Assembly: GCA_965213925.1 (NCBI GenBank)
Contig: OZ243927.1
Location: forward strand, 3,456,001 to 3,520,000
Reading direction: 5' to 3'
Origin: Trueperaceae bacterium
Lineage (GTDB): Bacteria; Deinococcota; Deinococci; Deinococcales; Trueperaceae
DNA: 64,000 nucleotides
Part shown: one piece after another, positions 1 through 34,220 of the stretch
Layout: each line of letters begins with the position of its first letter
How positions within the stretch are numbered: position 1 is the first letter of the stretch
Made by a program: the position numbers and the translations under genes
The notes under the pieces: model-generated
What the model was told of the DNA's origin: nothing
Database searches by the model: none
Seen by the model: the letters and a program-made list of their open reading frames with translations, nothing else

Positions 1-31
1 TCGCAAGAGATGCGCGCAACTCGCGCACAAC
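1..31. repeat. 34-bp lox-like site #1 (left end cut by window edge)
   Basis: ...TCGCAAGAGA TGCGCGCA ACTCGCGCACAAC; matches the other copies. Confidence 0.75.
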
Positions 32-112
32 TGCTGTAGCACACCCGTAGCGGGTTCCGCCTCTCCCTTCGAGGGCACGTCTCGATTGTTAGGAGCGAAG
101 GAAACGCACTTA

Positions 113-1039
113 TTAGGGCTGCGCCAGCTCGCGCTCCAGCGCCTTCCGGTCCCAGTTCGCCAGCTCAGCCGCCGCCTCGTAGGTGCTCTGCAAGAAGTCC
201 AAGAGCGCGGCGTCAGGGTCGGTAGCTTTCCGCACCGCCTCATAGGGCAGGATAAATTCGCCCAGCGCGTTATGGTAGTACGCTTCGGCAGGGCGGACCT
301 CGTAGCTCCCGAAGCCCTCCGGCTCTGGGTAAGCATAAGAATAGAAGGCGGCGCCACCCAGCTCCTGGCTCAAGAAGAAGCCTGCGCTCGAGACCTCATG
401 CGAGTAGGCTTCCTGCATCACCCAGTCCGCCACGTTAGGCGCGCCGCCCGGGTGTGTAGGCGCGGGTCGCCCGGAAAAGCGGGTCACGGCCAGGTCGAAC
501 GCGCCCCAGAAGAGGTGAATCGGGCTCGCCTTGCCGACGAAGTGGGCGCGGAAGCGCGTGAACACCCGGTGAACGTGCAGGAGGATTTGCCACAGTTGTG
601 TAGCGCCTATAGGGTCGTAGGCCGCCTCCCCTTCATGCTCATGGAAGGGTTGGATGGGATGAGGCAGCTCGACCGGCACGGGCCAGATGTCCACCTCGAG
701 GTTTAGTTCTTTGAGCAGACGAAGAACACCGTAGTAGAAGTCCGCCACCGACATCGAGCGTAAGGGTAGGGTGCGTACCGCGCCCTCCAACGTGCGCACA
801 ACAAGCTGGTGGTCGTGGAAGTCGAACTCGAGTTCAAATGTGCGTGTTCCATAGGGAATGAGCGAGGTGCTCATTCCCCGCGCGGTGAGGTAGAGGGGAA
901 CGTGCCAGGAGTGGTTGGTCCAGGGCGTCCGCTCGAGCCGAATCTTCCCGACAATCTGGCTCCAGAGGTGCAGGGTGTCGTAGGTCTCGCCCCAGCGTTC
1001 GAGCGGCAGGGGCGGCCAGACGTTTTTGGCTTCCATCAA
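113..1039 (-). CDS. DUF5996-type hypothetical protein
   Basis: 308-aa ORF with TLHLWSQIVGK, NHSWHV, HLFWGAFDLAVTRFSG and FYSYAYPEP motifs. Confidence 0.8.
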   Translation of the reverse strand: MMEAKNVWPPLPLERWGETYDTLHLWSQIVGKIRLERTPWTNHSWHVPLYLTARGMSTSLIPYGTRTFELEFDFHDHQLVVRTLEGAVRTLPLRSMSVADFYYGVLRLLKELNLEVDIWPVPVELPHPIQPFHEHEGEAAYDPIGATQLWQILLHVHRVFTRFRAHFVGKASPIHLFWGAFDLAVTRFSGRPAPTHPGGAPNVADWVMQEAYSHEVSSAGFFLSQELGGAAFYSYAYPEPEGFGSYEVRPAEAYYHNALGEFILPYEAVRKATDPDAALLDFLQSTYEAAAELANWDRKALERELAQP

Positions 1040-1177
1040 TCTCTCCTCAAACTTTCCTCTAAGCGTGATGGGGGAGGCTTTTACCTATAACGTTGATGCT
1101 CGAAGCTCGCATCTCGATATTTATCTCCCCCTCGATTCTGTTTATGGCATAGGTTAGCGCGACCCCTATGAGCAAGA

Positions 1178-2788
1178 CTAAACGGTGCGCGCGGAAGGCG
1201 CTTTGTACCGTTCTAGCCAGTGCCGCGCCGCCCGAACATCGCCGTCACCCAGGACATGATCTGCGTCCTCCTAGTGCAGTGTGACCTCCGCCCCAGCCTT
1301 TTGCAGTATCGTAGCCAGCCGAAGAGCGTTCTCGGTCGGGATGAGGGGATCACGCCGCCCGGCTCCTAAGAACACCGCAACGCCGCTTAGGTCTGGCAGC
1401 TGATTCTCAAGAGTTCCAGGGTCAAGCGGTATCATCGGCCTGAAGAGCACGACTGCGCGGAAGAGCCCAGGGTGACGCAGCATCGCTGCTGAGGCGATGT
1501 TCGCCCCGTTGGAGTAGCCGACTGCGGCGACGCTGTCCGCACTGAAGTCATAGGCAGACGCCGCCTGCACCACGAAGGTGGCAAGCTCATCGGCGCGGCG
1601 CTTCACGTCGTCCTCGTCGAACACGCCCTCCTCCAGGCGGCGGAAGAAGCGGGTCGAGCCGCGCTCGAGCACCTTCCCGCGGGGGCTCAAGAGGTTGGCG
1701 TCGGGGTGGAGCGTCTGACCCAGCGGAACGAGGTCGTTCTCGTCGCCGCCCGTGCCGTGCAGGAGCAATAGGGTCTCGTCCGCGCCTTCTTTAGGAAGCC
1801 AGCGGTGGATGAAGCCGAGCTGCGGTCCCTCGAAGGTCGCGCGCTTTTCAGCTTGTACCGAAGTCGGTAGGTGGAGGGGTGGTAACACTGCCTCGAGCCG
1901 CCCCCTCATCCCTTCGTACTGCGGCGGCAGCTTGAGCACTCCGCCAAGTTCATCTATGGGTTCGTCCACCGTGAAGCCGGGCGGGTCAGTAGCGACCTCG
2001 AAGAGCGCGCCGCCGGGCTCACGGAAGTAGACCGAGCGGAAGTACTGCCGGTCGACCTGTGGGGTGGGGGCTAGCCCGCCCTTAGCCAGGACCTGCCTCA
2101 ACTCGAGCTGCGCCGCGTCGTCCTCCGAGCGAAACGCGACGTGGTGGACCGTGCCTGCGCCCAGTATACCGGGCCAAAAATCTTCAGCCACACGTATATC
2201 GACCACGCGACCCGGACCTTCCCCCGCAACGTATCGGTGGACGAAGCCCTCCTGAGCGTCCTCGCGGAAGCCTAGGTGCTCAGTGAGAAGGCTCGAGGTC
2301 ACGCCTAGCCGGTCCTCCCAGAGCGTCACGCCGAAGATGCCGCGGACAGCGTGCTCGGCGGGAAGAGGCGACTCTCGCCAAGGCGCGGTCGCGCTTGCGT
2401 CCTCGTCAGCGACGAGCTCGAGCCTCAGCCCGTCCGGGTCGTCAAAAGCCAGCACGCGTTTACCGAAGCGCTCCTCGGTATCAAAGCGCAGATTGCGCGC
2501 TGAGAGCCGATCTAGCCAGAACCCCAGGGACGCCTGTGGAATTGAAAGGGCCACAGACGCGAACTGCCCGGTGCCGCGCTGCCCGCACTGCGCCCCGGGC
2601 CAGGGGAAGAAGGTCAGGATCGTGCCGGGCTGACCCGACGTATCTCCGTAGTAGAGGTGATAAGTAGTGGGATCGTCAAAGTTGACCGTCCTCTTGACTA
2701 GCCGCAAACCGAGAAAGCCCGCGTAGAAGTCTAGGTTGCGCTGCGGGTCGCTCGCAACGGCTGTAACGTGGTGGATACCGCTCGTCAT
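1178..2788 (-). pseudogene. Ring-cleaving dioxygenase (MhqO-like VOC) fused to MhqD-like alpha/beta hydrolase; premature TAG at 1271-1273
   Basis: GIHHVTA...KRTVNFDDP N-terminal domain; LHGTGG and GYSNG hydrolase motifs; frame continues after TAG as EDADHVLGDGDVRAARHWL to a stop at 1178. Confidence 0.8.
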
Positions 2789-2893
2789 AACGCTCTCCTT
2801 CAGGATCATCGAACGATCCTTTGCATGGCTCGAGTGTAGACGGCGTCGAGGCGATCTCTCAAGACACCCAATTCGCCTCTTCTTGACCGATAT

Positions 2894-3718
2894 TTAGATC
2901 GCCCGGTGTTGTTTGCGGTACTGTAGGGGGGTCATCCCGTGGCGGCCCCGGAATTTGCGGTTGAAGTAGGCGGGGTCAGGGTAGCCGACCCGCTCGCCGA
3001 TAGAGGCGACGTACGTGTCCTCCCGTAAGAGCAACCGGCGCGCCTCAGCCATACGCCGCTCAGCGATCCAGTCATTCACGGTGCGGCCGGTCGCTTCGCG
3101 TACAGCCGTCGTGAGGTAGGCAGGCGTGAGGTGAAGCGTGCTAGCTACGTCCGCGAGGGATAGCGGCTCTCGAAATTTGACTTCGATTACGTCGAAGACG
3201 CGAGCCAGGAGGGGCTGCACCGCGAGCGGCGCGGTGCCGTAGCGCTCGGCGCTGAGCCGAGCGGCGTCGACGAGCAGGAGGCTCAGAAGTGCTCGGCTCG
3301 CCTCCTCAGAGCCAAGGTCTGTTCCTTTTGTCTCGGCTTCGAGCCTGGTCAGGCTCGTTTCCCACTGCGGGCGGTCATTGGGTGGCACACGGAGCGGCTC
3401 GGGCTGCGGCTGTATGAAGGCGAGGAAGAGTGGGTTGCAGAGCCAGTAGAAGAGGACGTGGCTGCGCTCACTGATGGGAACGAGGGGTTCGGGGACGAAG
3501 GTGACGATGTCGTAAGCAGCCTGAGCGAACCTTCTCGGCTCGAGCCGCTCGTTCGGTGCGGCGAGGTAGAGGTCGCCTTCGCTTACAGCCCCGGACGTGG
3601 CAACCTCTCGGATATAGATGAGGCTTGCCAGACCGTTCTGCTGCACTATCCCATCTGAGGACAACTCCCCTTGTGCATGCGTAGCAAGAATTTGGACTAG
3701 CTCAGTTGAAATAGACAC
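2894..3718 (-). CDS. AraC-family transcriptional regulator
   Basis: C-terminal double HTH (VGYPDPAYFNRKFR...TP). Confidence 0.9.
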   Translation of the reverse strand: MSISTELVQILATHAQGELSSDGIVQQNGLASLIYIREVATSGAVSEGDLYLAAPNERLEPRRFAQAAYDIVTFVPEPLVPISERSHVLFYWLCNPLFLAFIQPQPEPLRVPPNDRPQWETSLTRLEAETKGTDLGSEEASRALLSLLLVDAARLSAERYGTAPLAVQPLLARVFDVIEVKFREPLSLADVASTLHLTPAYLTTAVREATGRTVNDWIAERRMAEARRLLLREDTYVASIGERVGYPDPAYFNRKFRGRHGMTPLQYRKQHRAI

Positions 3719-3818: not shown

Positions 3819-3852
3819 CTTTTGCGAGAGATGCGCGCGTCTGTTGCAGAAG
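3819..3852. repeat. 34-bp lox-like site #2
   Basis: CTTTTGCGAGAGA TGCGCGCG TCTGTTGCAGAAG. Confidence 0.85.
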
Positions 3853-3882
3853 CTTTTACCTTCACCGAGCAACGTCGCCGCC

Positions 3883-4512
3883 GTGTTAAGCTCCCTCAAG
3901 ACTTTGCTGAGAGGGCACGGTTTGACTCCCGCTGACACTGACCTCGCGCTTCTTCGTAGCGCCTTTGAGCGCTTCGTCCCCCTATCAGACGAGGTATGGG
4001 CGGAGGTCAACACGCTGTGGCACGTCCGTAAGGTTGAGCGCAGCACTACCCTCACGAGAGTGGGCGAGACGGAGCAATCGTTCGGACTCGTCCTCGAGGG
4101 CGTGCAGCGCCTCTACTTCACCACGCTTGACGGCGCTGACGTCACCGTCGCCTTTGCCTACCCCCCGAACTACACGGGCGTCCCCGACTCATTCTTTCTC
4201 CAAGCGCCCTCTGCTTATGCGCTCGAAGCGCTTACTGACGGGCGCATGCTTTGGATTGATTACGCAAGCTTGATGTGGCTCATGGACCGGCACCGCGAAC
4301 TCGAGCGCTGGGCCTGGCGGCTCCTTGCTGCCGCCGGAGCGGGCCGGGGCAAACGCGAACGCGAAGCCCTCACGCTCTCAGCAGAGGAGCGCTACGCCCG
4401 CCTCCTCCGTGAGTCGCCCCACCTACCTGACCTTGTCGCACAACACCACTTGGCCTCGTACCTCGGCATGACCCCGGAGACGCTGAGCCGCATCCGCGCC
4501 CGCTTACGCTGA
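3883..4512 (+). CDS. Crp/Fnr-family regulator (start uncertain)
   Basis: cNMP-binding-like domain plus LASYLGMTPETLSRIR HTH. Confidence 0.88.
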   Translation: MLSSLKTLLRGHGLTPADTDLALLRSAFERFVPLSDEVWAEVNTLWHVRKVERSTTLTRVGETEQSFGLVLEGVQRLYFTTLDGADVTVAFAYPPNYTGVPDSFFLQAPSAYALEALTDGRMLWIDYASLMWLMDRHRELERWAWRLLAAAGAGRGKREREALTLSAEERYARLLRESPHLPDLVAQHHLASYLGMTPETLSRIRARLR

Positions 4513-4575
4513 ACGTCTTGACGCCCTTGATATAGGTCAATGCGCTCGGTGCAGGTTATCCCGTAGCCTAGCGGT

Positions 4576-5448
4576 ATGACCCACAACATCCCTACTTGGC
4601 TCGACCGCGACCTCTATCCGTTCGCACCTCACACGTTCGAAACTGAGTACGGCAAGATGCGCTATGTGGACGAGGGCAACGGCCCGCCTATCGTCCTCGT
4701 CCACGGGACGCCGACCTGGTCGTTCTTGTGGCGAGGGCTGATTCGGACGCTTGCCAAGACGCACCGCGTCGTCGCACCCGACCACCTCGGATTCGGGCTG
4801 TCCGACAAGCCGCCTGGCGCGCCTTACCGACCCGAAGACCAAGCGACGCGGCTAGAGGCATTGATCAAACATCTTGGACTCCGCGACATCGTGCTTGTCG
4901 TGCACGACTTCGGCGGGCCAATCGGTCTTTCTTACGCCACCGAGCACTCCGCAAACGTGCGCGCACTCGTCCTCTATAACACTTGGCTCTGGTCGCAAGC
5001 CGACGACCCAGCGGCGGTGCGGGCTAGCCGCCTGCTTGGGGGCTCCTTAGGTCGGTTCCTCTACACCCGCTTCAACCTCTCGCCGCGCGTTCTGCTGCCG
5101 ACCCTCTTTGCTGACCGCTTGAAGCTCACTCGCGCTGTGCACCGCCACTACCTATGCCCCTTCCCTAACGCACGCAGCCGATACGCACCAGCTGTGCTCG
5201 CCCACGAGCTCATCGGCTCCAGCATGTGGTTCGATAACTTATGGAATAGGCGGGCTGTGCTTGCTGACAAGCCTGCTCTGCTTGTGTGGGGCGAGAAAGA
5301 CAGGGCGTTCGGACTCCAGGACTTGCAGCGCTGGCAGGAGGCGCTACCCAGAGCAGAAACGGCGCTGTATCCCGAAGCGGGTCACTTCGTGCAAGAGGAG
5401 GTACCTAGCTCTGCGGCGCGGGTAGCCTCATTCGTGCGTAAGCTTTAG
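4576..5448 (+). CDS. Alpha/beta hydrolase (haloalkane dehalogenase-like)
   Basis: VHGTPTWSFLW, VHDFGGPIG (Asp nucleophile), AGHFVQEE. Confidence 0.88.
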   Translation: MTHNIPTWLDRDLYPFAPHTFETEYGKMRYVDEGNGPPIVLVHGTPTWSFLWRGLIRTLAKTHRVVAPDHLGFGLSDKPPGAPYRPEDQATRLEALIKHLGLRDIVLVVHDFGGPIGLSYATEHSANVRALVLYNTWLWSQADDPAAVRASRLLGGSLGRFLYTRFNLSPRVLLPTLFADRLKLTRAVHRHYLCPFPNARSRYAPAVLAHELIGSSMWFDNLWNRRAVLADKPALLVWGEKDRAFGLQDLQRWQEALPRAETALYPEAGHFVQEEVPSSAARVASFVRKL

Positions 5449-5572: not shown

Positions 5573-5606
5573 CTTCTGCGCGAGTTGCGCGCAACTGTGT
5601 CCTTGA
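5573..5606. repeat. 34-bp lox-like site #3 (right arm degenerate)
   Basis: CTTCTGCGCGAGT TGCGCGCA ACTGTGTCCTTGA. Confidence 0.7.
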
Positions 5607-5639
5607 GGAATAGGCGAAGGCTTTATAGTAAATGTGCTT

Positions 5640-6350
5640 ATGAAGAGGATTATCCTGATCGCCGCCGGACTCGCCCTCATCACTGTGGCTGCTGCCGCTA
5701 TCTACTTCTACTTTACAGACCCCGGTAGGTTGACGACATCACCTGAATTCGCCGAATTAGAAAAATCTGTGTCAGCCGGTACCCTTACCTCGCGAGCCGA
5801 CCCCGCCATGAACATGATGTTTGACGAAGACTACGAGTACATCGGCGGTCAAACGTTCGAACTCTACGGCACCGCTGATGTTGAACAGCATTTCTTCGTC
5901 GAGGAGCATCCGGACGGAAGTTTGAAAAGCCTTTTCTGGCTGCAGTTTGAAGGCTTTTTGCCTAGCAACGACTACGCCTATGATTACACTGACTCTCCGC
6001 TTCGAGTCGAAATAGACGGCCTCAACTTCTATACGGACACAGCAGCAGGCATTGACGTTAGGTTCTGGCGGCTTGGCTCACCAGGAACGGACGGCTACCT
6101 CGTGCGCAAGTTCCTTGCTGGCAAAGGCTACAGCTACCCTGACGAGTATTTCTACGCGCGGCTCGTTCATATCCCGGACTCGGCCCGCCGCAAAGAGCTC
6201 CTCATCATTTTTATCGACGACCTAAAGCCCTCGGGCTTCGCTGCGGCGGAGCTGCGCGAGGGCGGAGAACGTGAGGAAAGCTGGCTGGAGGTCGAGGCGG
6301 CGCACCTGGAAAAGATCAGGAACGTCATGACGCTGAGTCAGCTTGAGTGA
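5640..6350 (+). CDS. Hypothetical protein with N-terminal signal/anchor
   Basis: MKRIILIAAGLALITVAAAAIYFYF followed by a soluble domain. Confidence 0.7.
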   Translation: MKRIILIAAGLALITVAAAAIYFYFTDPGRLTTSPEFAELEKSVSAGTLTSRADPAMNMMFDEDYEYIGGQTFELYGTADVEQHFFVEEHPDGSLKSLFWLQFEGFLPSNDYAYDYTDSPLRVEIDGLNFYTDTAAGIDVRFWRLGSPGTDGYLVRKFLAGKGYSYPDEYFYARLVHIPDSARRKELLIIFIDDLKPSGFAAAELREGGEREESWLEVEAAHLEKIRNVMTLSQLE

Positions 6351-6416
6351 GGCACCGCCTGGAATCGGTATTCAGCTAAGTACCGGGGCAGAGTTCGGGC
6401 GGAGATTTGCATAGAC

Positions 6417-6450
6417 TTCGTGCGTGTGATGCGCGCGTCTCTCGCAGAAG
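6417..6450. repeat. 34-bp lox-like site #4
   Basis: TTCGTGCGTGTGA TGCGCGCG TCTCTCGCAGAAG. Confidence 0.85.
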
Positions 6451-6459
6451 CACCATAGT

Positions 6460-6912
6460 TCAACCGAATAGCTGTGCTGGCATCTCGACCTGCGCGCCCA
6501 TCGCCTTAGCGATCCGCTCGAAGTCCTGCGGGCTGATCTCGAAGAGCCCGCGCCGGAAGGGGAAGCCCCACTTCCGTTTATCAGTAACGAAGGTAAGGTC
6601 TTCTAGTAGAGGACGTACCGGTGCTTCTTTCACCCCTTTGAAGCTCACCTTACGTCGCCAGGGATGAAAGTCGGACGTCATCTCGACTTGATAGGGCTCG
6701 TTGTCTATGACTCTGCCCAGGGCGGTGAATGCCTGCAGCACCTCCCCACCCCTAAAAGCAGTTCTAGGAGAGTAGAAAATCAGCATGTCCCCCATTCTTA
6801 GACGCTCGAGGCGTGTGCGCTTGCCGTGATCCGCTTGGGTGAAGCCGCCCTCGACCCCCGCCCGTACGTGATCGCGCGACACTGTGTTGACCCAGTAATG
6901 CGCCTCAGCCAC
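6460..6912 (-). CDS. EVE (PUA-like) domain protein
   Basis: YWVNTVSRDHV..GV.GGFTQADHGK, FYSPR, WGFPFRRGLFEI; GTG start overlaps the upstream stop. Confidence 0.85.
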   Translation of the reverse strand: MAEAHYWVNTVSRDHVRAGVEGGFTQADHGKRTRLERLRMGDMLIFYSPRTAFRGGEVLQAFTALGRVIDNEPYQVEMTSDFHPWRRKVSFKGVKEAPVRPLLEDLTFVTDKRKWGFPFRRGLFEISPQDFERIAKAMGAQVEMPAQLFG

Positions 6913-7279
6913 GGTCGTGAAGGGTGATGAGGTAACCCTTAGGGTCCCGGACGGAAAAGGTCTTGCCAAAGGGACCGTCTACTAGGTCCGACGTGACCTC
7001 AACCCCCTTGTTAACCAGATGGTCACGTAGCTTCGCGCTGTCGTCTACCTTGAACCAGAGTGCCACGCCATGACCCCGATGTGGGGTGAGGTCTAGATTG
7101 ACGAGCGGCGTTCGCACGGCGAAGGCGATAGGCTCGGTAGCGAAAACAACTGCACCGGGCGGGCTCTGCGGGGCGAGTGCTAGCCCTAGCGTCTCGTGGT
7201 AGAAGCGTTTGCCAGCGTCCAAATCGCGCCACTGCAGCGCAATGAAGTCGGGACCGTCAACCTTTGTTTTTACATTCAT
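6905..7279 (-). CDS. VOC/glyoxalase family protein
   Basis: FYHETLGL, GPFGKTFSVRDPKGY. Confidence 0.85.
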   Translation of the reverse strand: MNVKTKVDGPDFIALQWRDLDAGKRFYHETLGLALAPQSPPGAVVFATEPIAFAVRTPLVNLDLTPHRGHGVALWFKVDDSAKLRDHLVNKGVEVTSDLVDGPFGKTFSVRDPKGYLITLHDRG

Positions 7280-7293
7280 TCTTGACCTCCTAT

Positions 7294-7341
7294 TTATCAG
7301 TACCCTGATAACTTGTAGCTAGATTATCAGCACCCTGATAT
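7294..7341. promoter_or_regulatory. Two palindromic operators, probably bound by the adjacent MarR
   Basis: TTATCAG-TACC-CTGATAA (7294-7311) and TTATCAG-CACC-CTGATAT (7324-7341) between divergent genes. Confidence 0.7.
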
Positions 7342-7352
7342 AATGTCAAGCC

Positions 7353-7790
7353 ATGAAACTGACCTCTGATCCTCTCGGCTATCTCCTCAAGCGCGCTCAG
7401 TCGGCGCTGCGCAGCAACATGGATGCAGCGCTCGCGACACTAGACCTTACGACCCCGCAGTACGCCGCGTTGGGCGAGCTGGTGAAGGAGCAGGGGCTCT
7501 CAAATGCCGAACTTGCTCGCCGCTGTTTCGTAACACCTCAGACTATGTACCAGATCGTGATCGGGCTCGAGCGTGGCGCGCTGCTAGAGCGCTCGCCGCA
7601 CCCCGAGCATGGACGTATTCAGCGGGTGAAACCGACTGCTGAGGGGCAAGCGCTCTTGGAACATGCTCACAGTTTAGTAGCTGAGGTTGAAAAGCGGATG
7701 ACGCGGGAGCTGACACAAGTGGAGATCGAGCAAGCGTGTGCGCTGCTAACAAAATGTTACAAGGGGCTGGAGAGTAAAGACGGAGCCTAG
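7353..7790 (+). CDS. MarR-family regulator
   Basis: LTTPQYAAL, LSNAELARRCFVTPQTM winged HTH. Confidence 0.9.
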   Translation: MKLTSDPLGYLLKRAQSALRSNMDAALATLDLTTPQYAALGELVKEQGLSNAELARRCFVTPQTMYQIVIGLERGALLERSPHPEHGRIQRVKPTAEGQALLEHAHSLVAEVEKRMTRELTQVEIEQACALLTKCYKGLESKDGA

Positions 7791-7817
7791 AACCTATCGG
7801 CGAAAGCTGACCAACGG

Positions 7818-7851
7818 CTTCTGCGCTTAACGCGCGCGTTTGTTGCAGAAT
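7818..7851. repeat. 34-bp lox-like site #5
   Basis: CTTCTGCGCTTAA CGCGCGCG TTTGTTGCAGAAT. Confidence 0.85.
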
Positions 7852-7881
7852 GGATCATCCGCTAAGTTCTGCATCATTCGC

Positions 7882-8385
7882 TCAGCCAGCTTCCCTCGTC
7901 TTCAACGCATAGCAGCGACAGAGGATTTTGCGACGAATTTCCTGGACAAACCAAGAAACTCTTTGCAACCCTCCGCCATGCGCTCTGACAAGTGGGCGTC
8001 GGTATGCTACTGGATGAGATAGGGCAGCAGCCAGCCCCCCAGGAGCTGGCCGTCGTCGAGGACGCCGAAGTGCCAACGCAGGTCGCCGCGGCTCACAGGG
8101 GTAGCCTCGCCTAACGAGAAGGGGGTGCGCGCTTGCAGCGCGGTGATGTCCGGGGTGTTGACTACCCGAGCGAGCAGCTACGGCTGCCGCGCCAGCCGGA
8201 CCCGCAAGAAGGGGTCGTCAATCCCGTACCAGCGCGGCCTCACGAGTGCGGGCGCGTCGGGCCGGGCGCGACACCTCCAAAAAGACCTCGCCGCCGAGCC
8301 GCATCAGGTGGTTGTAGGTGCCCACCGCAGGGTGCTTCCCACCCGCTGGGATGTCGATCCCGAATTGGTCACCGCTACAACCTAG
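7882..8385 (-). pseudogene. Decayed Glyoxalase_3/VOC gene
   Basis: Fragments GGKHPAVGTYNHLMRLGGEVFLEV, RPRWYGIDDP and LPYLIQ*, with stops and frameshifts. Confidence 0.65.
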
Positions 8386-9163: not shown

Positions 9164-9442
9164 CGTTTAGCTCCTTTTATAACGGCTGTTTATAACGGCT
9201 GTTTTTGGGATAAAACCGAAAGGCTCTATGCCGCAATGCGTCACCACTGGACCCAGCAACAGCGATAAGTTCTGTTCCAAAATCGTCCGCTAGGCTGAAA
9301 CCTTTGACGTACTGGCTTACCTCTCCATGTTGTTTTTGCAGCCGTCACCCTTATAATGTTAGCGTGCCTTCTTCCCGAAAAGAAGGGGCACTTAGGGGCA
9401 AAACTGCTCGTTTTCTTTTTAGTTGAAAGGGGTTTTGGCTTT

Positions 9443-24506: not shown

Positions 24507-24509
24507 GCG

Positions 24510-25310: not shown

Positions 25311-25331
25311 AGCAATTCGCCCAAGTACTGA

Positions 25332-25555
25332 TAGCACTTCCAAGATGTACTGAGACAAATGAGCGCAGGTATCATCCCGGAACGTGCGTGCTGAACTGTG
25401 TTTTCTACAGTGAGAGTGTTGCTTCGCATAACTTCGTTCACTCAAACCAGATGATACCTGCTATGAGTTGGAATAGCGCAAGTCTCATTTTCAAGCGTAT
25501 GTGCTTAGCAGTGTTCCATTCAGTGAGCGCGTTCCAAACCAAATGATACTTGCTA
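25332..25555. repeat. Two adjacent MITE-like repeats (25332-25463; 25474-25555)
   Basis: TAGC...ATGATAC(C/T)TGCTA termini; relatives at 42440, 43688 and 50352. Confidence 0.65.
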
Positions 25556-25574
25556 CGAAGGAGGCGAAGAAACC

Positions 25575-27113
25575 GTGAGACGCACCACCCCTCTTCTCCT
25601 TGGGCTTTTCGCCCTCTTCGCCTTAGGTGCGCTGCTGACTAAAATGCTCGGACCGACCCTCGCCCACTCGCGCTGGCTGAGCGGGAGCGACGCGCAAGGG
25701 CTCGAGCGGGTGACCGTCGCCTGCGACCCCTACTTCGCGTACGGGGCGCTCTTTGGCGATACGAACCGCGCCCTGCTGCGGGCTCGTGGGTACAGCTTAG
25801 AATGCGACAACGACAATGCCGACTACGCCGCGCGAAGTGCCGCGTTATCCGAAGGTCGCGTGCCCTCCGCCGTCTTTACGAGAGGCGCGTATGTCCAGGT
25901 CGGCGGACCCGCCTGGGACGCGGTCGAGGTTGCCGTGTTGAGCGAATCGCGAGGGAGTGACGCGCTCGTCGGGCGCGGCGAGTTGAACACCCTCGCGGCG
26001 TTGCAAGGGGCGCTCTCGAGCGGCAAACCGCTCAACATCGCAGTCACGCCCGCTTCGCCCTCCTGGACACTCCTTAAAACGGTGGAGAACACCTTCGGTC
26101 TCGAGCTTAACGACGCCAACATCGTCTTCGCGGAAGGCTCGAGTGACGCCTACGAGAGGTTGGCACGCGGCGAGGTCGGCGCTGCCGTCCTCTGGCAACC
26201 CGACCTGGCGCAGGCGTTCAAAGACCCGGGCGTCCACGAACTCATCAGCACCGCCGACACGCGCAACCTGGTCGTAGACATCCTCTTGGTCAACCGCAGC
26301 TTCGCCCAGCGCCGCCCCGAGGTGGTCGCGGCGGTGGTTGAAAGTTTCTACGAGACGCTCGAGCTGTACCGCCAAGACACCGCCTTGCTCGTTCGCGACG
26401 TTCGGCGCTTTAGCCGCACCTTCGGACACCGCCTCTCGGACGATGAGGTGCGCACGATGCTTGCAGGCGTAGACTTTCAATCTTTAGCGGACAACGCCCT
26501 GACCTGGTACGGCGTCGCCGACAACGACAAAGGGCTGCGCACTTACGCCGCCGCCGAGAGCTACCGCTACTTAGAACGCACCTTTGTGGACGTCGGTGTG
26601 TTGGCGCAGCCCGTTCTACCCGCTGCCGGAGGTGACGCGCTCACAAGCAGCCGCTTCGTCGCTCAGGCGGCGCAGGGCAAACCGCTGGCGCAGCGCCAGG
26701 CGACCTCGTTTGCGGCGCTTGCGGGAGATGAATGGGCAGCGCTGGAGGTCGTCGGTACGCTTCGGGCGAGACCTATCGGCTTCAGCGCGTCGCGCTCAGA
26801 CCTCTCGAGTCGGGGCAAACGCGCCCTCGCTGAGGTCGCCGCCGACCTCTCGGCTTTTGGCAGCTTCCGGCTGCTCATCGAGGGACACACGAACGCGGTG
26901 GGCGACGCAGAGCGCAACCTCGCCCTGTCGCGTGCCCGCGCACAGGCGATTGCCGACTACCTCGCTGAGCGCCACGCGGTCGACCCCGCTCGCTTACACG
27001 TCGTCGGCTATGGAGGTGCAAAGCCGCTCCCGTGTCCGCCCGGAGACTCTGCCCGCGCCTGCGCCTCGCGTCAGCAGCGCAGCGTCCTCACCTTTTTGAG
27101 CCCCGACCTATGA
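25575..27113 (+). CDS. Second PBP-II binding protein + OmpA-like domain
   Basis: SESRGSDALV, AAVLWQPD; IEGHT..G...NLALSRARAQA...GYG. Confidence 0.8.
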   Translation: MRRTTPLLLGLFALFALGALLTKMLGPTLAHSRWLSGSDAQGLERVTVACDPYFAYGALFGDTNRALLRARGYSLECDNDNADYAARSAALSEGRVPSAVFTRGAYVQVGGPAWDAVEVAVLSESRGSDALVGRGELNTLAALQGALSSGKPLNIAVTPASPSWTLLKTVENTFGLELNDANIVFAEGSSDAYERLARGEVGAAVLWQPDLAQAFKDPGVHELISTADTRNLVVDILLVNRSFAQRRPEVVAAVVESFYETLELYRQDTALLVRDVRRFSRTFGHRLSDDEVRTMLAGVDFQSLADNALTWYGVADNDKGLRTYAAAESYRYLERTFVDVGVLAQPVLPAAGGDALTSSRFVAQAAQGKPLAQRQATSFAALAGDEWAALEVVGTLRARPIGFSASRSDLSSRGKRALAEVAADLSAFGSFRLLIEGHTNAVGDAERNLALSRARAQAIADYLAERHAVDPARLHVVGYGGAKPLPCPPGDSARACASRQQRSVLTFLSPDL

Positions 27114-27123
27114 GCCGCAACTT

Positions 27124-27894
27124 ATGAGCCGCAGCAGCAAATTCAGTTATGGGCGTCTGCGCCGCGAAACGCTCAGCCGCGACGTGCTGCAAGACCCGCT
27201 GGGGCTCGGAGGTCTACTGAGCAGCGCGGCGTCTCTCGTCGTCAGCGCACTCTGGACTAGCCCGCTCGCGTTAGTGGTCGGCGCAGCTCTCGGCGGGCTC
27301 GCGCTGGTACGGTTTCTCGTCCTCTATATTCGCCGGAATGAACTCGTCGAGCGGCGCTTACATGCCCACTTCGAGGAAGAGAAGCGGCTTAGCGAGCGGG
27401 AGAACGCGGAGACGTTGGACGCACTCCAGCGCAGCTTGAACGCCTTAGCGCCGGAGAACGCCCGGCAGCTTGAACGGCTCGAGGAGGCGTTCTCCGCCCT
27501 GTCGCGGGTGGTCGAACAGCGCTTCCCGGCCGGCAGCCTCTCAGCAGAGCGCTACTTAGGTGGCATCTTAGAGACTCGGCGCGTCGTGCTTCACAATCTG
27601 CACCAGGTGACGCGCTATCTGCAAGCCGCGCAGGTTACAACAACCAATCACGAGCGCGTACACGAAGAAAAAGAGGTGCTTTTAGAAGAGGTGACGCGCT
27701 TCACTGAGCAAAACGAGCTGCTTATCGGTGAGCTGCACGCGCTGAGGCTCAAACTGGTGCGCGTGCCCCTCGCCGGGTCGCACGCCCCGCTGAGCACGCT
27801 GGATGCACCGTCAGACGAAGAGGTCAGCAGGCGCTTGGACCAGCTCGCCCAAACAACTGAGCGCATGGTCACAGAATTGCGGAGACATCCGTGA
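27124..27894 (+). CDS. Membrane + coiled-coil protein (possible XpaC-like TelA partner)
   Basis: Two N-terminal TM segments, helical C-terminus, directly upstream of telA. Confidence 0.55.
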   Translation: MSRSSKFSYGRLRRETLSRDVLQDPLGLGGLLSSAASLVVSALWTSPLALVVGAALGGLALVRFLVLYIRRNELVERRLHAHFEEEKRLSERENAETLDALQRSLNALAPENARQLERLEEAFSALSRVVEQRFPAGSLSAERYLGGILETRRVVLHNLHQVTRYLQAAQVTTTNHERVHEEKEVLLEEVTRFTEQNELLIGELHALRLKLVRVPLAGSHAPLSTLDAPSDEEVSRRLDQLAQTTERMVTELRRHP

Positions 27895-28005
27895 AGACCG
27901 CTCGAGTTTTCATATCGAGTCTCTCCGCGGTGGATTTTGCAGCGGATGTAGACGCAGTGCGACCTTTTATCACCACAAACTCCAACCGTAAAGAAAGGAC
28001 ACCCC

Positions 28006-29238
28006 ATGCCCGACTCCCTCCAGCCCCCGCAAGTTGAGATGTTAGAGCCTCCTAAGCCCGTTCAGCCCGTCGAGAAAGCGCACGCCGAGAGGATGATTCG
28101 CCTAAATGAGGTGACGCAAAGCGTGTTGGACGAGAAAGTCCGGGGCTTTGTCGAGAGCGTCATCAGCTCGCCGCCGCAGAGTGACGCCTTCCAGAGCAAG
28201 GTCGCCGCAGTCCACAACCTCGGCAACGAGGACATACGCGCCGCCTCCTCAGTCTCCAACCGCTTTTTGGAGCGCCCGGCGAGCGCACTTTCGGGCGGGC
28301 TCGACAGCAAGTCGAAGGTCTCCAAGACGCTCATCGACCTGCGTAAGACCGTCGAAGACCTAGACCCCTCGAAGCAGGGTGACCTGTTCGCGCCCAAAAA
28401 GCTCTTTGGTCTCATCCCGGTGGGGAGTAATATTCGCGACTACTTCCTCAAGTACCAGTCCTCGCAGCAACACTTGGGCCAGATTTTGACCTCGCTCTAT
28501 AACGGTCAAGACGAGCTGCGCAAGGACAACGCGACTATCGAGCAGGAGAAGGTCAATTTGTGGGAAGCGATGGAGAAGTTGGAGTCGTATATCTATCTGG
28601 CGCGGAAAGTGGACGAAGCGCTCTTAGCACGTGCGGACAAACTCAAGCGCACCGAGCCCGAAAAAGCCCGCGTGGTTGAAGAGGAGATGCTCTTTTACTT
28701 GCGGCAGAAAGTGCAGGACTTACAGACGCAGCTCGCCGTCTCTATTCAGGGCTATCTAGCGCTCGACATGGTCCGCAAGAACAACTTAGAACTCATCAAG
28801 GGTGTGGACCGCGCCTCGACCACGACGGTGTCGGCGCTGCGCACGGCGGTCATGGTCTCGCAGGGACTGGCAAATCAGAAGCTCGTCTTGGACCAGATAG
28901 ACGCGCTTAACGCGACTACAGGCAATCTCATCGCGTCCACCTCGGCGCTCTTGAGAAAGCAATCCTCGAGCGTACATACGCAGGCGGCTGGAGCGACCGT
29001 GGATGTCGAGCAACTCCAGAAGGCTTTCAATAATGTTTACGCAGCGGTGGACGCGATTTCTGAATACAAGCAGGCAGCTCTAGGCGTGATGCAGCAAACC
29101 GTAGACACGCTCGAAGCGGAGATTGGCAAGTCGAAGACGTATCTGGACCGGGTACGCAATGAGCAGGTGGCGGGGGCGACAGCGGATTTGACGCTCGAGG
29201 TTCCAGACAACGCAGCGGATAACGAACTTAGGCTTTAA
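28006..29238 (+). CDS. telA: Toxic anion resistance protein (TelA family)
   Basis: LRKTVEDLDP, YF.KYQSSQ, GQDELRKDN, NNLELIKGVDRA.TTTVSALRTAV. Confidence 0.9.
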   Translation: MPDSLQPPQVEMLEPPKPVQPVEKAHAERMIRLNEVTQSVLDEKVRGFVESVISSPPQSDAFQSKVAAVHNLGNEDIRAASSVSNRFLERPASALSGGLDSKSKVSKTLIDLRKTVEDLDPSKQGDLFAPKKLFGLIPVGSNIRDYFLKYQSSQQHLGQILTSLYNGQDELRKDNATIEQEKVNLWEAMEKLESYIYLARKVDEALLARADKLKRTEPEKARVVEEEMLFYLRQKVQDLQTQLAVSIQGYLALDMVRKNNLELIKGVDRASTTTVSALRTAVMVSQGLANQKLVLDQIDALNATTGNLIASTSALLRKQSSSVHTQAAGATVDVEQLQKAFNNVYAAVDAISEYKQAALGVMQQTVDTLEAEIGKSKTYLDRVRNEQVAGATADLTLEVPDNAADNELRL

Positions 29239-29709: not shown

Positions 29710-31401
29710 GGCTCTTACGAAAGTTGTGTGGTCAGGCAGCCAGCAGCACCTTTTGCCTGAGCAGGTCAAAGCTAGCGCGTCCATACATCTGCCGCTTGAG
29801 CAACTTGAGCTTAGTAATTTTACCCTCGGTCGGTCCATTGCTCCACGGCAGAGTTAATGCCACTTCGATAGCCGCCTTATCGTTGCTGAAACCTTTCGCC
29901 AAGCGAGCGAGTTCATCAACGCCGCTCGCTCTTTATGGTGTCGCTGAGCCAGCGTTGAAACGCCGCTATAGTTTCATGGGGTGCTCGTTCCTTGCACCTG
30001 AATAGCGCGACGAAGCGTTGCACCAGGTCGTAGCAACGCTCCGCTTCTTGCGCACCCTCGAAGAGCCGCTCGAGTCGTTTGAAATCGTGCTGAGTTAGCG
30101 CCCCTTTTGAGCTTGTAAATAAGCGCGTCGCCTCATACGCCGAATAACGCATGACCCTTTGTCTCTTGTCTGCCCTCGAAAAGTCAATGCCCGCTTCCAA
30201 CTCGGCAAAGTAGGCGTAGACGAGACCATAAGCACCGGTGAAGCCCCGCGCCGTGATCTCCCGGTAGAGCTGCATCTTGTTGCCGATGCCCGCATCCCAT
30301 CTTTGTTTGAGATAGGGTTCGTAGGGCGCTAAGATGCGATTTTTCTGTCTATCAGGATACGTACCCCGAGCAAACCAACGGCTCAGCGTGCTCCTGCCGA
30401 CACCGAGCTTGGCAGCAATCTTAGGAAGACTAAAGCCGTCCGCTTCTAAACGCTTGGCTTCTTCGAAGATGGCTCGGCGTTTGCGGCGCGTCTCGAGCTT
30501 CGCTTGCAGCGCCCTTTCGTAGCTGGTGCGGACGTGAATCTGCTGAGGCACATCGCCGCCAGATTCGTGTCCATCATCAGAAAGCTCAACCAGATACTTT
30601 TTATGGCGCTCGCACCAGCGTTTCAAGAGGTCGCTGAAGTTTTTGAGCAGATGCCAACGGTCGGCGACCTGAACCGCTTGGGGTGCGCCCTCGTCGCAAG
30701 CGGATTTGTATTCCTGAGAGCGATCGCGAGAGATGGTTTCGACGCTAGGATGCGCCTTTAGCCAGTCCACCAGGGTTGCTGAGCTTCTGTCGGGTAGAAC
30801 GTCGACCACTTCGCGTTTTTCCAGGTCAAGCAACAGGGTGCCGTAACTTTCCCGTTTCCGAATAGCAAAATCGTCCACACCCAGCACGCGCGGTGTTGCT
30901 CGTGTCACTAAGCTCTGGGTTCGGACAAGGTCGAGCGCGCTATCGTGGCTCACAGGCATCTCTAACTGTCCGAGCAGGTCTTCGCTCGCTTTAGCGCTTA
31001 GAGAGGTCGCCACACGACGTTGCGCGTCGCTCAAGCGTTTGCTTCTATGTGCGTAACGCGCCAGCCAGGGGTCGAAAGACTCTGCGAACGTTCTTCTCTC
31101 ACAGCAACGATTTAAGCAGTAGAACCGTTTGTCTTTGAGACGCAACTGAACTGTGTGATCAGCCAGGGGCAAATCAGCAGGATGGCGTTGGTAGTAACCA
31201 CTTACCTTGTTTGATAGCGCCTGGCAGAGCGGACAATTCGCCTCCGTTTTACGTGAGCCGTGAGCACCAAACCACCTTCGCGAACTTTGAACGCTTCGAT
31301 GACACACGCTGGAAACAGGATATCGAGCATCCTTCATGCTGTTCGCTAGCCCTTCAAGATGCAAGACCCAACCCAGTTCCCACAATTCTTTCGTAAGAGC
31401 C
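29710..31401 (-). mobile_element. ISL3-family insertion sequence with frameshifted transposase (29732-31330)
   Basis: IRs GGCTCTTACGAAAG at both ends; CP.C, LGVDDFA, ISRDRS..Y, QVADRWHL, WSNGPTEG..KLKLLKRQMYGRA; frameshifts near 31250 and 29925. Confidence 0.9.
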
Positions 31402-31460
31402 ATCAAGTGCCCAAATTAGATGGTATACGCAATAATGGAAAGGCTCGGGTGCGTAGCGTC

Positions 31461-31494
31461 CTTGTGCAACGAACGCGCGCGTTAAACGCAGAAG
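31461..31494. repeat. 34-bp lox-like site #7
   Basis: CTTGTGCAACGAA CGCGCGCG TTAAACGCAGAAG. Confidence 0.85.
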
Positions 31495-31562: not shown

Positions 31563-32312
31563 TTAGAGCTGACTCATCCCACCATCCGCCGCAATTTCGG
31601 TGCCGAGGATGAACGAGGCGTCGTCCGAGGCTAGAAAGGTGACGACCTTAGCGATCTCTTGGGACGTGCCAAAGCGCTTCATCGGAATCTGCTCTAAGAT
31701 GCCTGCCGCCATCCCTTGTATTTGCGCCTCATCCATACCCAGCTTGCCGTAGAAGGGCGTTTCCACAGGACCGGGGCTTACCGCGTTCACCCGGATGTTT
31801 CTAGACAGGAGTTCCGCCGACACGGTGCGGATGAGGCTGAGTAGCGCGGCCTTGCTCGCGGCGTAAACCGTGGTCATGGGCATCCCGATATGAGCGTTGA
31901 TCGAGGTGTTGAGCACGATGGACGCGCCATCGTTCATGTGGGGAAGCGCTTTCTGGATGGTGAAGTACGCGCCTTTGAAGTTGACGTCCATGATCCTATC
32001 GAAGTCCTCCTCCGTCATCTCGCTGAGCGGCTTGAGTACCGCTAACCCTGCGTTGACAAAGAGGATATCGACCTTTCCGAAGGCTTCTCGGGTCTGTTCG
32101 AAGAGACGGTCTAAATCGCTGAGCTTAGTAACATCCGCTCTTACTGCTATGGCGTCGCCACCTATCTCGTGCGCCGCCTTCTCTAGTGCTCCTTCGTCCC
32201 GCCCCGAGATGACAACCTTCGTACCTAGGCGTACAAGTTCAGCCGCCGTCGCTCGCCCGATGCCGCTATTACCGCCCGTGATGACAGCGACTTTGTCGGT
32301 TAAGTCAGGCAT
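31563..32312 (-). CDS. SDR oxidoreductase
   Basis: TGGNSGIG, YAASK. Confidence 0.92.
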   Translation of the reverse strand: MPDLTDKVAVITGGNSGIGRATAAELVRLGTKVVISGRDEGALEKAAHEIGGDAIAVRADVTKLSDLDRLFEQTREAFGKVDILFVNAGLAVLKPLSEMTEEDFDRIMDVNFKGAYFTIQKALPHMNDGASIVLNTSINAHIGMPMTTVYAASKAALLSLIRTVSAELLSRNIRVNAVSPGPVETPFYGKLGMDEAQIQGMAAGILEQIPMKRFGTSQEIAKVVTFLASDDASFILGTEIAADGGMSQL

Positions 32313-33250
32313 CACTCGCCTCCTAGGAACTCGAGCAATCGCTCTGTGAATACCTCAGGTACTTCTTCAGGCACCCAGTGCCCCGAGCCTTCAATCATAC
32401 CACCTTGTACGTTCTCGGCATAGGCTTTTACCTGTTGAGGGACGAAGCCACCCAAGCTACCCTCAGCTCCCAGGGCGAGTACTAGCATAGTCAGCGGGGT
32501 CTGCGCATAAACCTCGTTCTGCGCTACGTCCTCTGGGAAGGCACGGAAGTAGTCGAAGCTCGCTTTTAGCTTGCCAGGCTGCGCGTAGGTGCGGGCGTAT
32601 TCGGCAAAGTCGGCGTCGGTAAAGCCCTCTTGATTGACCGTTAAGGCGCGAACGAATTGCTCCAGGAAGTATTGCTCTTGCCCGGCAATGATTGTTTCGG
32701 GCATCTCAGGGAAGCTGAAGAATCCGAAGTTCCACGCGCCAAAGCCCGTCTCGGTGATGGCAGGAAAGGTGTAAATGCTGGCGTCGGGAATAGGCGCTTC
32801 GACCAGCGCAAGGCGGCGCACCTCTTCCGGATAAGCGGCGGCGTAGGCGTAGGCAACCATCAGCCCGATATCATGCCCTACCAAGTTGATTTCACCGTCG
32901 CCGTACCCAAGGTCTTGAACCAGAGCGCGGATGCGTTCGGCGGTCGTCGCTTTGTCGAAGCCGCCCTCTGGTACCTCCGAGTCTCCGAGTCCTGGCAAGT
33001 CAGGGGCAATGACGGTGTAACGCTCGGCTAAGGCGGGCATCACCTTGCGCCACATATACCAGGTCGAGCCCCAGCCGTGTAGTAAGACTAAAGGTTCTCC
33101 TTCACCGCCGATGACATAGTGGAGTTCGCCCGCGTCCAGCTCAGCAACCTCACTGCTGAAGCCTTCCGGTAGGAGTGAAGGGTCGGGCTGAGCGAACGCG
33201 GTCGCCGCGAGAAGCACTAGCAGTAGAAAAGAACACCTGATGACTTTCAT
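32312..33250 (-). CDS. Secreted alpha/beta hydrolase (epoxide hydrolase-like)
   Basis: Signal peptide, HGWG, GHDIG, GHWVPEE; GGAGG RBS. Confidence 0.85.
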   Translation of the reverse strand: MKVIRCSFLLLVLLAATAFAQPDPSLLPEGFSSEVAELDAGELHYVIGGEGEPLVLLHGWGSTWYMWRKVMPALAERYTVIAPDLPGLGDSEVPEGGFDKATTAERIRALVQDLGYGDGEINLVGHDIGLMVAYAYAAAYPEEVRRLALVEAPIPDASIYTFPAITETGFGAWNFGFFSFPEMPETIIAGQEQYFLEQFVRALTVNQEGFTDADFAEYARTYAQPGKLKASFDYFRAFPEDVAQNEVYAQTPLTMLVLALGAEGSLGGFVPQQVKAYAENVQGGMIEGSGHWVPEEVPEVFTERLLEFLGGE

Positions 33251-33375
33251 GGTAAACCTCCTTGAGCTTGAGTCTCGAGTCTTTCTCGAAACCTGTTTCA
33301 AGGCTCGCCTATCTGGATTAGTCCGTGTGTACAGACCTGTACACGCCCTCTCGGTGAACTGTGACACCATGAGTC

Positions 33376-34131
33376 ATGTCTAAAGAACCTAATCATGTCA
33401 AAGCACGAACGTCTTCTCCCGCCTTGCGGGGTGGGGTATGGGTCGCACCTGACAGCGGAGCGCTTAGCGATGACCCTACGCTCGATCTGGACTTCTTCGA
33501 TGGACGTTATCTCACCCGAGCCTTCGACCGGGGCGACTTCGTGTTCCGGGCTGGCGACTCGGCAGACGGCTTTTACATGGCGCTGGCAGGGCGCATCAAG
33601 CTCGTCTTGCCTGACCCTGTACGAGGGGAGCGCGTCGTTGCCGTGTGCGGCGAGGGCGACCTGTTCGGCGCGGCGGCTTGTGGGGGTGCGCCGGTGCACC
33701 GCGCGGAAGCGGTGAGTTTGCAGGAGGGAACCCTCGTTGTGAGCCTCTCCTGCGCCGAGCTGCAGGAGGCGACCAAGGGTACGCCTGCCGTGGCGCTCTT
33801 GCTCACCCGAGCCTTAGCCGCGAGGGTGCAGACCCTCGAAGAGGAGGCGGAGTTCGCCAGTTTGCCAGTGCAGGCGCGACTCGCCCGAACGTTGCTTGAC
33901 CTCGCTAAGCGCTTAGGTCAAGAAGTCGAGCCTGGGGTGTATGACCTCGAGCTTGCCCTGAGGCAAAACGAGATCGCCTCGCTCGCAGGGGCGACCAGGG
34001 TCAGCGCGACGCAGGCGCTTTCTGCCTGGCGAGATATCGGTGTCGTGACGGGTACACGCGGCTCCTACCGAGTGGACGTAGCGCGACTGGAGTCACTTCT
34101 GGACTTGCTCGAGGATGCGGCGGTGCGCTGA
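33376..34131 (+). CDS. Crp/Fnr-family regulator (start may be about 33431)
   Basis: cNMP-like domain, QNEIASLAGATRVS HTH. Confidence 0.88.
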   Translation: MSKEPNHVKARTSSPALRGGVWVAPDSGALSDDPTLDLDFFDGRYLTRAFDRGDFVFRAGDSADGFYMALAGRIKLVLPDPVRGERVVAVCGEGDLFGAAACGGAPVHRAEAVSLQEGTLVVSLSCAELQEATKGTPAVALLLTRALAARVQTLEEEAEFASLPVQARLARTLLDLAKRLGQEVEPGVYDLELALRQNEIASLAGATRVSATQALSAWRDIGVVTGTRGSYRVDVARLESLLDLLEDAAVR

Positions 34132-34186
34132 AAACGTCTTAATTTACATGGGTAACGTGATCTCACAACTTCTTTATGCTGTGGGC

Positions 34187-34220
34187 GCTGTGCGTGAGTA
34201 GCGCGCGTTCGCCGCACAAT
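34187..34220. repeat. 34-bp lox-like site #8 (last copy seen)
   Basis: GCTGTGCGTGAGT AGCGCGCG TTCGCCGCACAAT. Confidence 0.75.

Follow-up and report, generated by a model that had tools for sequence, protein, structure and literature searches.

What are the short imperfect palindromes that punctuate gene modules in the genome of a Trueperaceae bacterium, and which enzyme acts on them? The question is raised by a stretch of 64,000 nucleotides (contig OZ243927.1, positions 3,456,001 to 3,520,000; "the window" hereafter), in which an earlier note, made from the sequence alone, saw eight copies of such a site and proposed an integron-like or pdif-like shuffling system with a site type of its own. 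The breakpoints and the module mobility described below support that proposal: the sites are recombination junctions with the crossover mapped to a 6-bp core, and a small tyrosine recombinase encoded beside sites elsewhere in the genome is the candidate enzyme. The system is real and its chemistry ordinary; we regard it as a variant of recombinase-driven cassette arrays, for which no published description was found in the literature searched (subscription journals and preprint supplements lay outside that search).

Recombination sites with the crossover in the core

A position matrix was seeded with six of the window sites and then converged on the whole 4.75-Mb source genome (G000, with main contig C1; its congeners are G001 and G002). 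At more than 18 bits it gave 88 matches in G000, which take in one overlapping pair and one intron-split half, against none in an order-5 Markov simulation of C1 (simulation maximum 15.8); reversed-pattern controls gave no matches in 364 genomes. All eight places named in the earlier note hold members of this one family, with the corrections that 18235/21514 is a single split site and that the site placed at position 1 begins 3 bp outside the window; the idealised pattern as it was then written has no exact match. The consensus reads TT(C/G/A)TGC-(G/A)N3-(G/A)A-Y-GCGCGC followed by its mirror image, an imperfect palindrome of 32 informative bases, and the exact core GCGCGC is found in 79 of the 88 matches, a figure that is partly circular given that the seed already contained it. 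Since the 6-bp core is both the invariant and the exchanged part, and the base adjoining it moves with its arm, a 13-6-13 layout fits better than the loxP-like 13-8-13 layout first suggested. A second dyad at 35 bp was considered and set aside, as an arm-like score in 8 of 356 half-sites (the highest offset) was accompanied by neither a second full site nor a general polarity; likewise, no attI or polarity was found in the Trueperaceae arrays. At C1:881724-881768 two overlapping site matches lie 11 bp apart, an arm being duplicated in tandem.

Seven islands totalling 329 kb hold 83 of the 88 sites, the island limits being drawn from the sites themselves, and 4 of the 88 site centres fall inside ATG-initiated open reading frames (ORFs) of at least 150 amino acids (aa), though such ORFs cover 70% of the islands. 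An even spread through core DNA, which had been proposed as a sign of a different kind of repeat, is thus not what is seen. Neighbouring sites are separated by 746-23,643 bp (median 2,989; 75 intervals). The long ORFs that flank them are convergent at 28 of 82 sites, tandem at 38 and divergent at 16, which is unlike operators; 44 of the 82 sites lie between opposed ORFs, and long ORFs occur on both strands in all seven islands. Left and right arms are complementary at the level of random pairing on average (3.45 vs 3.40 matches) and arm variants combine as by chance (e.g., C-G 52 observed vs 52.2 expected), a picture to be expected neither of an attC-like fold nor of C/D asymmetry, but of half-sites that are reassorted. 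The idea of two arm classes as functional types was abandoned on the same ground. No target duplication is seen around the sites (flank information near 0).

To the G000 sites, 20 regions of G001 and G002 picked around pattern matches and four loci added 90 further sites, and 176 sites had full flanks. Counting flanks as shared at 85% or more over 100 nt, all 49 flank-sharing site pairs were one-sided, the second flank being unrelated. Identity follows the module through position -4 (0.78 vs 0.55 random) and is at background from +4 (0.49 vs 0.55). Gapped alignment of 182 junction windows found none conserved across the site and 73 pairs that stop within 25 nt of both centres; 28 other alignments represent recombinase genes, offsets of miniature inverted-repeat transposable elements (MITEs), or paralogs. 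The opposite outcome envisaged in the earlier note, synteny breakpoints away from the sites, did not materialise.

The modules between these junctions are mobile. Core-to-core duplicates of 936 bp and 854 bp at 100% identity exist within G000, the shorter corresponding to window 5573-6450, and two G000 places have at least 1.5 kb of flank in common up to a core. Copies elsewhere were found for 4 of 7 window modules (88-100% identity), those of the relatives lying at other places (88-97%), and the adjacent housekeeping block on the right is syntenic in both G001 and G002 (84-88%). A fixed chromosomal platform was considered and rejected, as G001 and G002 are without a site in the 40 kb and 11.5 kb, respectively, to the left of the same housekeeping block. 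In a marine metagenome of another study, contigs diverge from the window at 3853, 5586, 6436 and 6450 and continue into other arms; a joint 27-5572 in run X4, amounting to 25 letters in one contig, was not used.

The candidate recombinase and its proposed mode of action

As the earlier note had stated, no recombinase is found among the window proteins (60 ORFs scanned, Pfam), nor is a cognate one present in the 56-kb leftward continuation of the array. Its suggestion to look left of position 1 or beside other clusters was borne out in the second part: G000 has ten tyrosine recombinase matches, two of which, 88% identical, lie inside islands beside a site, both in islands other than that of the window and each sharing its module with a toxin-antitoxin pair. 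The candidate is a protein of 296 aa that scores below the XerC, XerD, XerA and IntI cut-offs (111.8 bits against the IntI model TIGR02249, cut-off 265) and aligns to XerD with a short insertion only. It has the R-K-H-R-H/W-Y catalytic set and the tyrosine recombinase superfamily fold, with R144, K168, H243, R246, H269 and Y278 invariant in 19 alignment rows, and its predicted fold is nearest to archaeal XerA (pLDDT 83). Its closest named carriers are Trueperaceae, and three phage matches are at 33-35%.

Gene and site are linked. Six of 10 recombinase genes are preceded by a site whose centre lies 78-82 bp upstream; in a first survey of 41 relatives, the 4 genomes with sites were also the 4 with the gene, and among 364 genomes of the phylum the strict pattern was found in 8, the recombinase in 7 and both in 6. 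This fixed spacing, together with a pairing of recombinase clade and site across two phyla (see below), singles out this recombinase gene. Two further features of the Trueperaceae genes were observed. A conserved hairpin of ~30 nt, 45 bp upstream of the start, pairs the GGAGG ribosome-binding site in 9 of 10 Trueperaceae copies (loci L005, L006, L007, L008, L017, L018, L024, L027 and L135) and could possibly act as a brake on translation of the recombinase. A 9-residue basic insertion at about residues 203-216 is present in five Trueperaceae rows and absent in 14 Bacillota rows.

We consider it very probable that the sites undergo a Cre-like, single-subunit reaction as double strands, with a 6-bp palindromic overlap that permits excision, insertion and inversion without polarity. 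In such a scheme one dedicated XerA-like tyrosine recombinase would act on the sites as Cre does on lox, with a single kind of subunit bound to both 13-bp arms and strand exchange across the core GCGCGC. Since this core reads the same on both strands and one arm can stand in for another, every pair of sites would be able to recombine in either alignment. Modules, 0.7-24 kb long with a median of 3 kb and carrying their own regulators, would be excised, inserted, inverted and copied between islands and species, and the recombinase gene, travelling in its own module (here with toxin-antitoxin pairs), would act in trans on islands like that of the window. Deinococcota are polyploid and competent, and the copies could come from sister chromosomes or from DNA uptake. 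The position of the crossover, the random pairing of arms, the clustering between genes, the mobility of the modules and the linkage of gene to site are directly shown; from these patterns we infer the candidate protein as catalyst, the cleavage chemistry, the circular intermediates and the route from cell to cell.

Several observations weigh against this scheme or limit the evidence for it. Both G000 recombinase copies look damaged, one having a stop at codon 4 and the other an Asp in the LGH motif where the remaining 18 rows have Gly, and still 100%-identical duplicates exist in that genome. Two genomes that are 98% complete, G278 and G279, have 7 and 3 strict sites and no close recombinase homologue, while G367 has the gene (70%) and no site within about 10 kb, its 2 one-mismatch sites lying elsewhere; the co-occurrence of gene and site is moreover overstated because kin share both traits. 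The 49 flank-sharing pairs are not independent (the 33 pairs at 95% or more fall in 25 clusters), the relatives were sampled around known sites only, and in the likely source sample no joint at any site was seen among the contigs listed. Finally, among 33 pairs of copies the inner arm positions diverge by 11.7% and the flanks by 1.5% (7 pairs with at least two changes, some in blocks), and perfect inner palindromes are found in 12 of 176 sites vs 4.2 expected (p=0.001), neither of which is explained by exchange strictly within the core; occasional arm conversion is our guess.

These difficulties give some room to an alternative that we hold to be unlikely, in which the sites are junctions for another enzyme (a host Xer protein, a different tyrosine integrase, or a small serine recombinase that cuts at the central GC) and the adjacent recombinase is cargo. 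The two genomes with sites and no gene, as well as the damaged G000 copies, would suit it, and G000 does hold eight other tyrosine recombinases and two resolvase matches, one of them broken and 2 kb from the smallest island; breakpoints, in addition, cannot separate a 2-bp from a 6-bp overlap within an invariant core. However, no G000 protein exceeds the XerD cut-off (TIGR02225; genome 97% complete, XerC not searched genome-wide) and the candidate itself falls below both Xer cut-offs, so that catalysis by host XerC/XerD is not supported; with no C/D arm asymmetry either, the resemblance of one arm to the XerC arm of dif, to which the earlier note drew attention, provides no link to host Xer. 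Of five other site-bearing genomes, three have a member of the resolvase family, G005 and G278 being the two without, and the intact G000 member adjoins a type I restriction-modification locus. Serine resolvases and Y1 transposases are not supported as movers, given no consistent co-occurrence of the former and no match to PF01797 for the latter in G000. The spacing between gene and site and the clade-site pairing in two phyla likewise speak for the dedicated recombinase.

Far less probable is the view that a regulator or nucleoid protein binds at the sites, or that they are worn MITEs, and that modules swap by homologous or microhomology recombination at these repeats. Many modules do carry regulators, and the blockwise replacement of some inner arms is conversion-like; yet 28 of 82 sites lie between convergent long ORFs, the breakpoints converge on 6 bp although the shared identity amounts to about 20 scattered bases, conservation of both flanks is seen at no junction, and no target duplication surrounds the sites. 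Equally improbable is an action on folded single strands like that of attC/IntI or of REP (repetitive extragenic palindrome)/HUH transposase systems, for which one could cite the AAC..GTT around the core in many copies, resembling integron core motifs, the small excess of perfect inner palindromes, and the basic insertion of the Trueperaceae enzymes near what we take to be the place of the IntI extra helix, but which is countered by the random arm complementarity, the enzyme's low score against IntI, Bacillota members without the insertion, and the absence of a Y1 transposase in G000.

A sister version in Bacillota and comparison with known systems

The Trueperaceae matrix gave no matches near Bacillota homologues of the recombinase (42-56%), and a separate matrix was built and trained on their own 75 loci. 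Near these genes lies a homologous site, TTnTTsAACTAA-n-core-n-TTAGTTsAAnAA, with 121 matches in 22 of the 75 loci vs 2 in shuffles, and present in 3 of 3 plasmid loci examined. Its cores are asymmetric (e.g., GGGTGC, GGGCAG, GGGGGC) and within a locus point one way almost always, mostly with single small ORFs between them; shared blocks likewise stop at the core. A strict Bacillus pattern, which matched 2 of 5 genomes, proved too narrow for counting genome-wide arrays. The Bacillota sites are often paired 45-65 bp apart, typically with core CTGCCC then GCACCC (L066, L068, L100, L042), and such pairs might be read as empty cassettes or as a two-site unit. On a Sporosarcina plasmid (L132, 3102-7460) a merR-merA pair and its neighbours lie between two Bacillota-type sites.

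In a midpoint-rooted tree of 72 recombinase rows (10 partial or broken loci excluded), a clade of 25 (support 97/92) unites the Trueperaceae enzymes with proteins of Alicyclobacillus and Sulfobacillus, those of Bacillaceae standing next to them. All 9 Bacillaceae rows and 4 of the 10 Alicyclobacillus-group rows, which belong to this clade of ~280-296 aa, have a site above 18 bits beside them, against none of the 46 rows in clades of ~330 aa. The system is probably a recombinase-driven cassette-array family spanning two phyla, and a transfer into Trueperaceae from Bacillota would be one reading of this midpoint-rooted tree. On balance we favor a broader reading, with some reserve: that a small Xer-like recombinase clade and its 32-bp double-stranded sites constitute a widespread cassette system of a third class, alongside integrons and dif modules, forming integron-like arrays on Bacillota chromosomes and plasmids; that the core became palindromic after the transfer into Trueperaceae, whereby directionality was lost and ordered single-gene arrays gave way to multi-gene modules that are shuffled freely as one pool across the genome and exchanged among species; and that the site is old enough for a group II intron and an insertion sequence (IS)/MITE family to have specialised on it.

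In its working the system is integron- and dif-module-like, but it is a member of neither. The pdif systems (Acinetobacter dif modules) have distinct XerC and XerD arms, variable spacers, alternating C/D modules and host enzymes, and reside mostly on plasmids (PMC13141974). The likeness lies in self-contained modules flanked by short sites of two arms and a 6-bp spacer, in inversion, deletion and shuffling with the crossover inside the site, in toxin-antitoxin modules, and in target-hunting IS elements next to the sites (PMC13141974). A 6-bp spacer with the crossover inside is present here too. Unlike in pdif, the arms are of one interchangeable kind and combine at random, with no C/D distinction or alternating C/D modules; an invariant, palindromic core, arrays located on the chromosome and a single mobile recombinase as candidate enzyme complete the contrast.

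The attC sites of integrons are long hairpins with complementary arms and RYYYAAC..GTTRRRY ends. The present sites, in which the earlier note had already seen that such ends are lacking, are 32 bp long with arm complementarity at the random level (no attC covariance model was run). Shared with integrons and with clusters of attC sites lacking an integrase (CALINs) are exchangeable accessory-gene arrays, breakpoints at the site, and arrays without a recombinase; a further likeness is that group II introns target the site, as IIC-attC introns do that of integrons (PMC4424553). Differences are the lack of IntI and of attC-type hairpin covariation, the short sites, and Trueperaceae modules that are multi-gene and on both strands. 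Co-oriented, mostly promoterless cassettes under a single promoter, accordingly not matched in Trueperaceae, are matched in outline by the Bacillota arrays, whose units are co-oriented and mostly hold one gene.

The rAID-1 arrays of Bacteroidales, compared by description alone, are said in two preprints to combine an XerD-like tyrosine recombinase with short-gene arrays and repeated intergenic motifs, for which gene capture has been proposed; the recombinases are reported as confined to Bacteroidales and as lying upstream of co-oriented immunity genes, and membership is defined by more than 44% identity to BF9343_RS08045 and a position upstream of co-oriented low-GC immunity genes (10.1101/471110, 10.1101/2025.05.03.651265). 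The likeness consists in a tyrosine recombinase and arrays with repeated intergenic motifs. Bacteroidota homologues of the candidate are 32-34% identical and fall in a site-less clade, BF9343_RS08045 itself not being among the compared proteins, and the window cargo is not immunity-like (Pfam). Cleavage of loxP likewise leaves a 6-bp exchange region, and one recombinase with symmetric arms is shared with Cre-loxP and with XerA, XerH and XerS, the nearest solved folds being archaeal XerA. Those systems, however, use one or two sites with an asymmetric spacer for dimer resolution, whereas here dozens of degenerate sites bound cargo. REP/RAYT systems are not matched (no PF01797; sites clustered in islands), and with regard to IntXO-PSL of pXO1 (PMC5567495), no B. 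anthracis record occurs among 21 plasmid matches at E<1e-40.

Integrons are found through IntI and attC, and systems of the present kind are therefore invisible to such searches. Here the crossover is mapped, an enzyme can be named as candidate, and culturable Bacillaceae and Alicyclobacillus have a sister version, also on plasmids, so that the building of cassette arrays in Gram-positive bacteria becomes directly testable; the natural pair of asymmetric core with co-oriented arrays and palindromic core with unordered modules probes the effect of spacer symmetry on genome architecture. It also raises the question of how a cell survives with about 90 mutually compatible sites, and a recombinase that tolerates varied arms could serve as a genetic tool.

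Organisation of the window and elements inserted at the site

The window covers the right end of a 91-kb island, and the array runs beyond the left edge, as had been supposed, with 19 more sites over 56 kb. Its first site (1..31, 34 bits) starts 3 bp to the left of the window at C1:3455998, where a 72% match in G002 stops. It is followed by genes for DUF5996, a glyoxalase-hydrolase fusion and an AraC regulator on the minus strand (113..3718; cargo assignments here and below are from Pfam), a site at 3819..3852 (44 bits) with a loose contig end of run X4 at 3853, and a Crp-like regulator and alpha/beta hydrolase on the plus strand (3844..5448). The site at 5573..5606 scores 21 bits owing to a decayed right arm, which accompanies its module in the other copies too. 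That module (5590..6433, plus strand), measured core to core, has a single 238-aa ORF (5634-6350, no Pfam family), with a 100% copy at C1:896499-897342, 2.56 Mb away, and a 94% copy in G002; at 5586 and 6436, contigs of run X4 stop and carry other arms. After a site between convergent genes (6417..6450, 39 bits) comes a module with an EVE domain, a glyoxalase and a divergent MarR regulator (6434..7834), of which G001 has a 97% copy terminating at both cores, and then a site at 7818..7850 (40 bits) with a 103-bp MITE flush with its arm (7851..7953; 4-bp target duplication AGAA). The mixed small genes on both strands at 8444..17753 (hydrolases, Lrp, LacI-type, glyoxalase, DinB, WYL, TetR) contain no additional site above noise in the matrix scan. 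Within them, at 10336, contigs of runs X1 and X2 depart from the window, and the letters end like the 3' end of a group II intron.

The next site is split at 18235/21514 by a 3,267-bp group II twintron, and its joined halves score 36.5 bits. The left part (18235..18246) is the 3' exon of an ORF-less outer intron on the minus strand, whose 3' piece (18247..18297, second half of domain V and domain VI) and 5' piece (20734..21513) enclose the inner intron (18298..20733, minus strand; reverse transcriptase (RT)/maturase/HNH ORF at 18408-20231; Rfam, Pfam), and the right part (21514..21535) is the core and right arm, or 5' exon. The arrangement is that of a twintron, the inner intron splitting outer domain V and an uninterrupted relative of the outer intron being present in G002; G002 also has an unsplit site at the module end corresponding to 21514. 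Two candidate exon-binding sites can be read from the sequence of the outer intron: EBS1 (from 21210), which complements the core end, and EBS2 (from 21299), which complements the inner arm. All four outer-intron 3' ends in G000 precede an arm in identical register, and the uninterrupted G002 relative abuts an arm 2 nt nearer the core. The inner intron has four 100% copies in G000, one of them 5'-truncated; each copy sits in the domain V of an outer intron, these outer introns having domain VI in three versions, and the inner intron may target other introns and supply RT in trans.

Plus-strand genes for a 2OG-Fe dioxygenase, vWA, OmpA-domain and TelA-family proteins follow (21856..29238; 97% match in G002, beginning at the core), then an ISL3 transposase (29916..31406, minus strand) and a site at 31461..31494 (39 bits). 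A stretch of 1,171 bp at 28507-29677 is identical to C1:2669031-2670201, beside site 2668972; this site is the end of the G002 copy of the TelA module, whereas the window copy ends near the ISL3 element instead. The last module (short-chain dehydrogenase, hydrolase and Crp regulator; 31563..34131) has three G002 copies at 88-91% without the middle 1.24 kb, two of which were observed to end at the right core. The last site of the island (34187..34219, 33 bits) abuts a truncated IS630-like element on the plus strand (34220..34762), which shares its terminal repeat with the MITEs.

Of 356 half-sites, 24 are directly followed by TGG and 10 by a 101-103-bp MITE, whose target duplication consists of the 4 terminal bases of the arm (one filled/empty pair was found). 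The IS630-like element, with TGG..CCA ends like those of the MITEs, is flush with two sites including that at window 34220; target duplication was confirmed for the MITEs and not for the complete IS copy next to site C1:3228843. The site is a target of both a group II twintron and a MITE family. ISAjo2 of the IS1202 family is also described as inserting at a fixed position beside a recombinase site, with TGT ends and 5-bp duplications (PMC10132070), unlike the MITEs with their 4-bp duplications and the IS630-like element with its TGG..CCA ends, which lie flush with the arm.

Right of the island, at 34.3-64 kb, nothing scores above 2 bits in the matrix scan, in keeping with the original observation that the sites lie between gene modules and spare the housekeeping region. 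From 35988 onwards, the opp block follows, in G001 and G002, DNA that in G000 is located 106 kb further right, so that the island marks a backbone rearrangement. Intergenic repeats of ~115 bp and ~55 bp, at about 43685-43805 and 42435-42540, respectively, have many matches in G001 and G002 and are unrelated to the sites, and a stretch of 41% GC with a STAND/AAA ATPase gene lies within the housekeeping region at 56001-57391.

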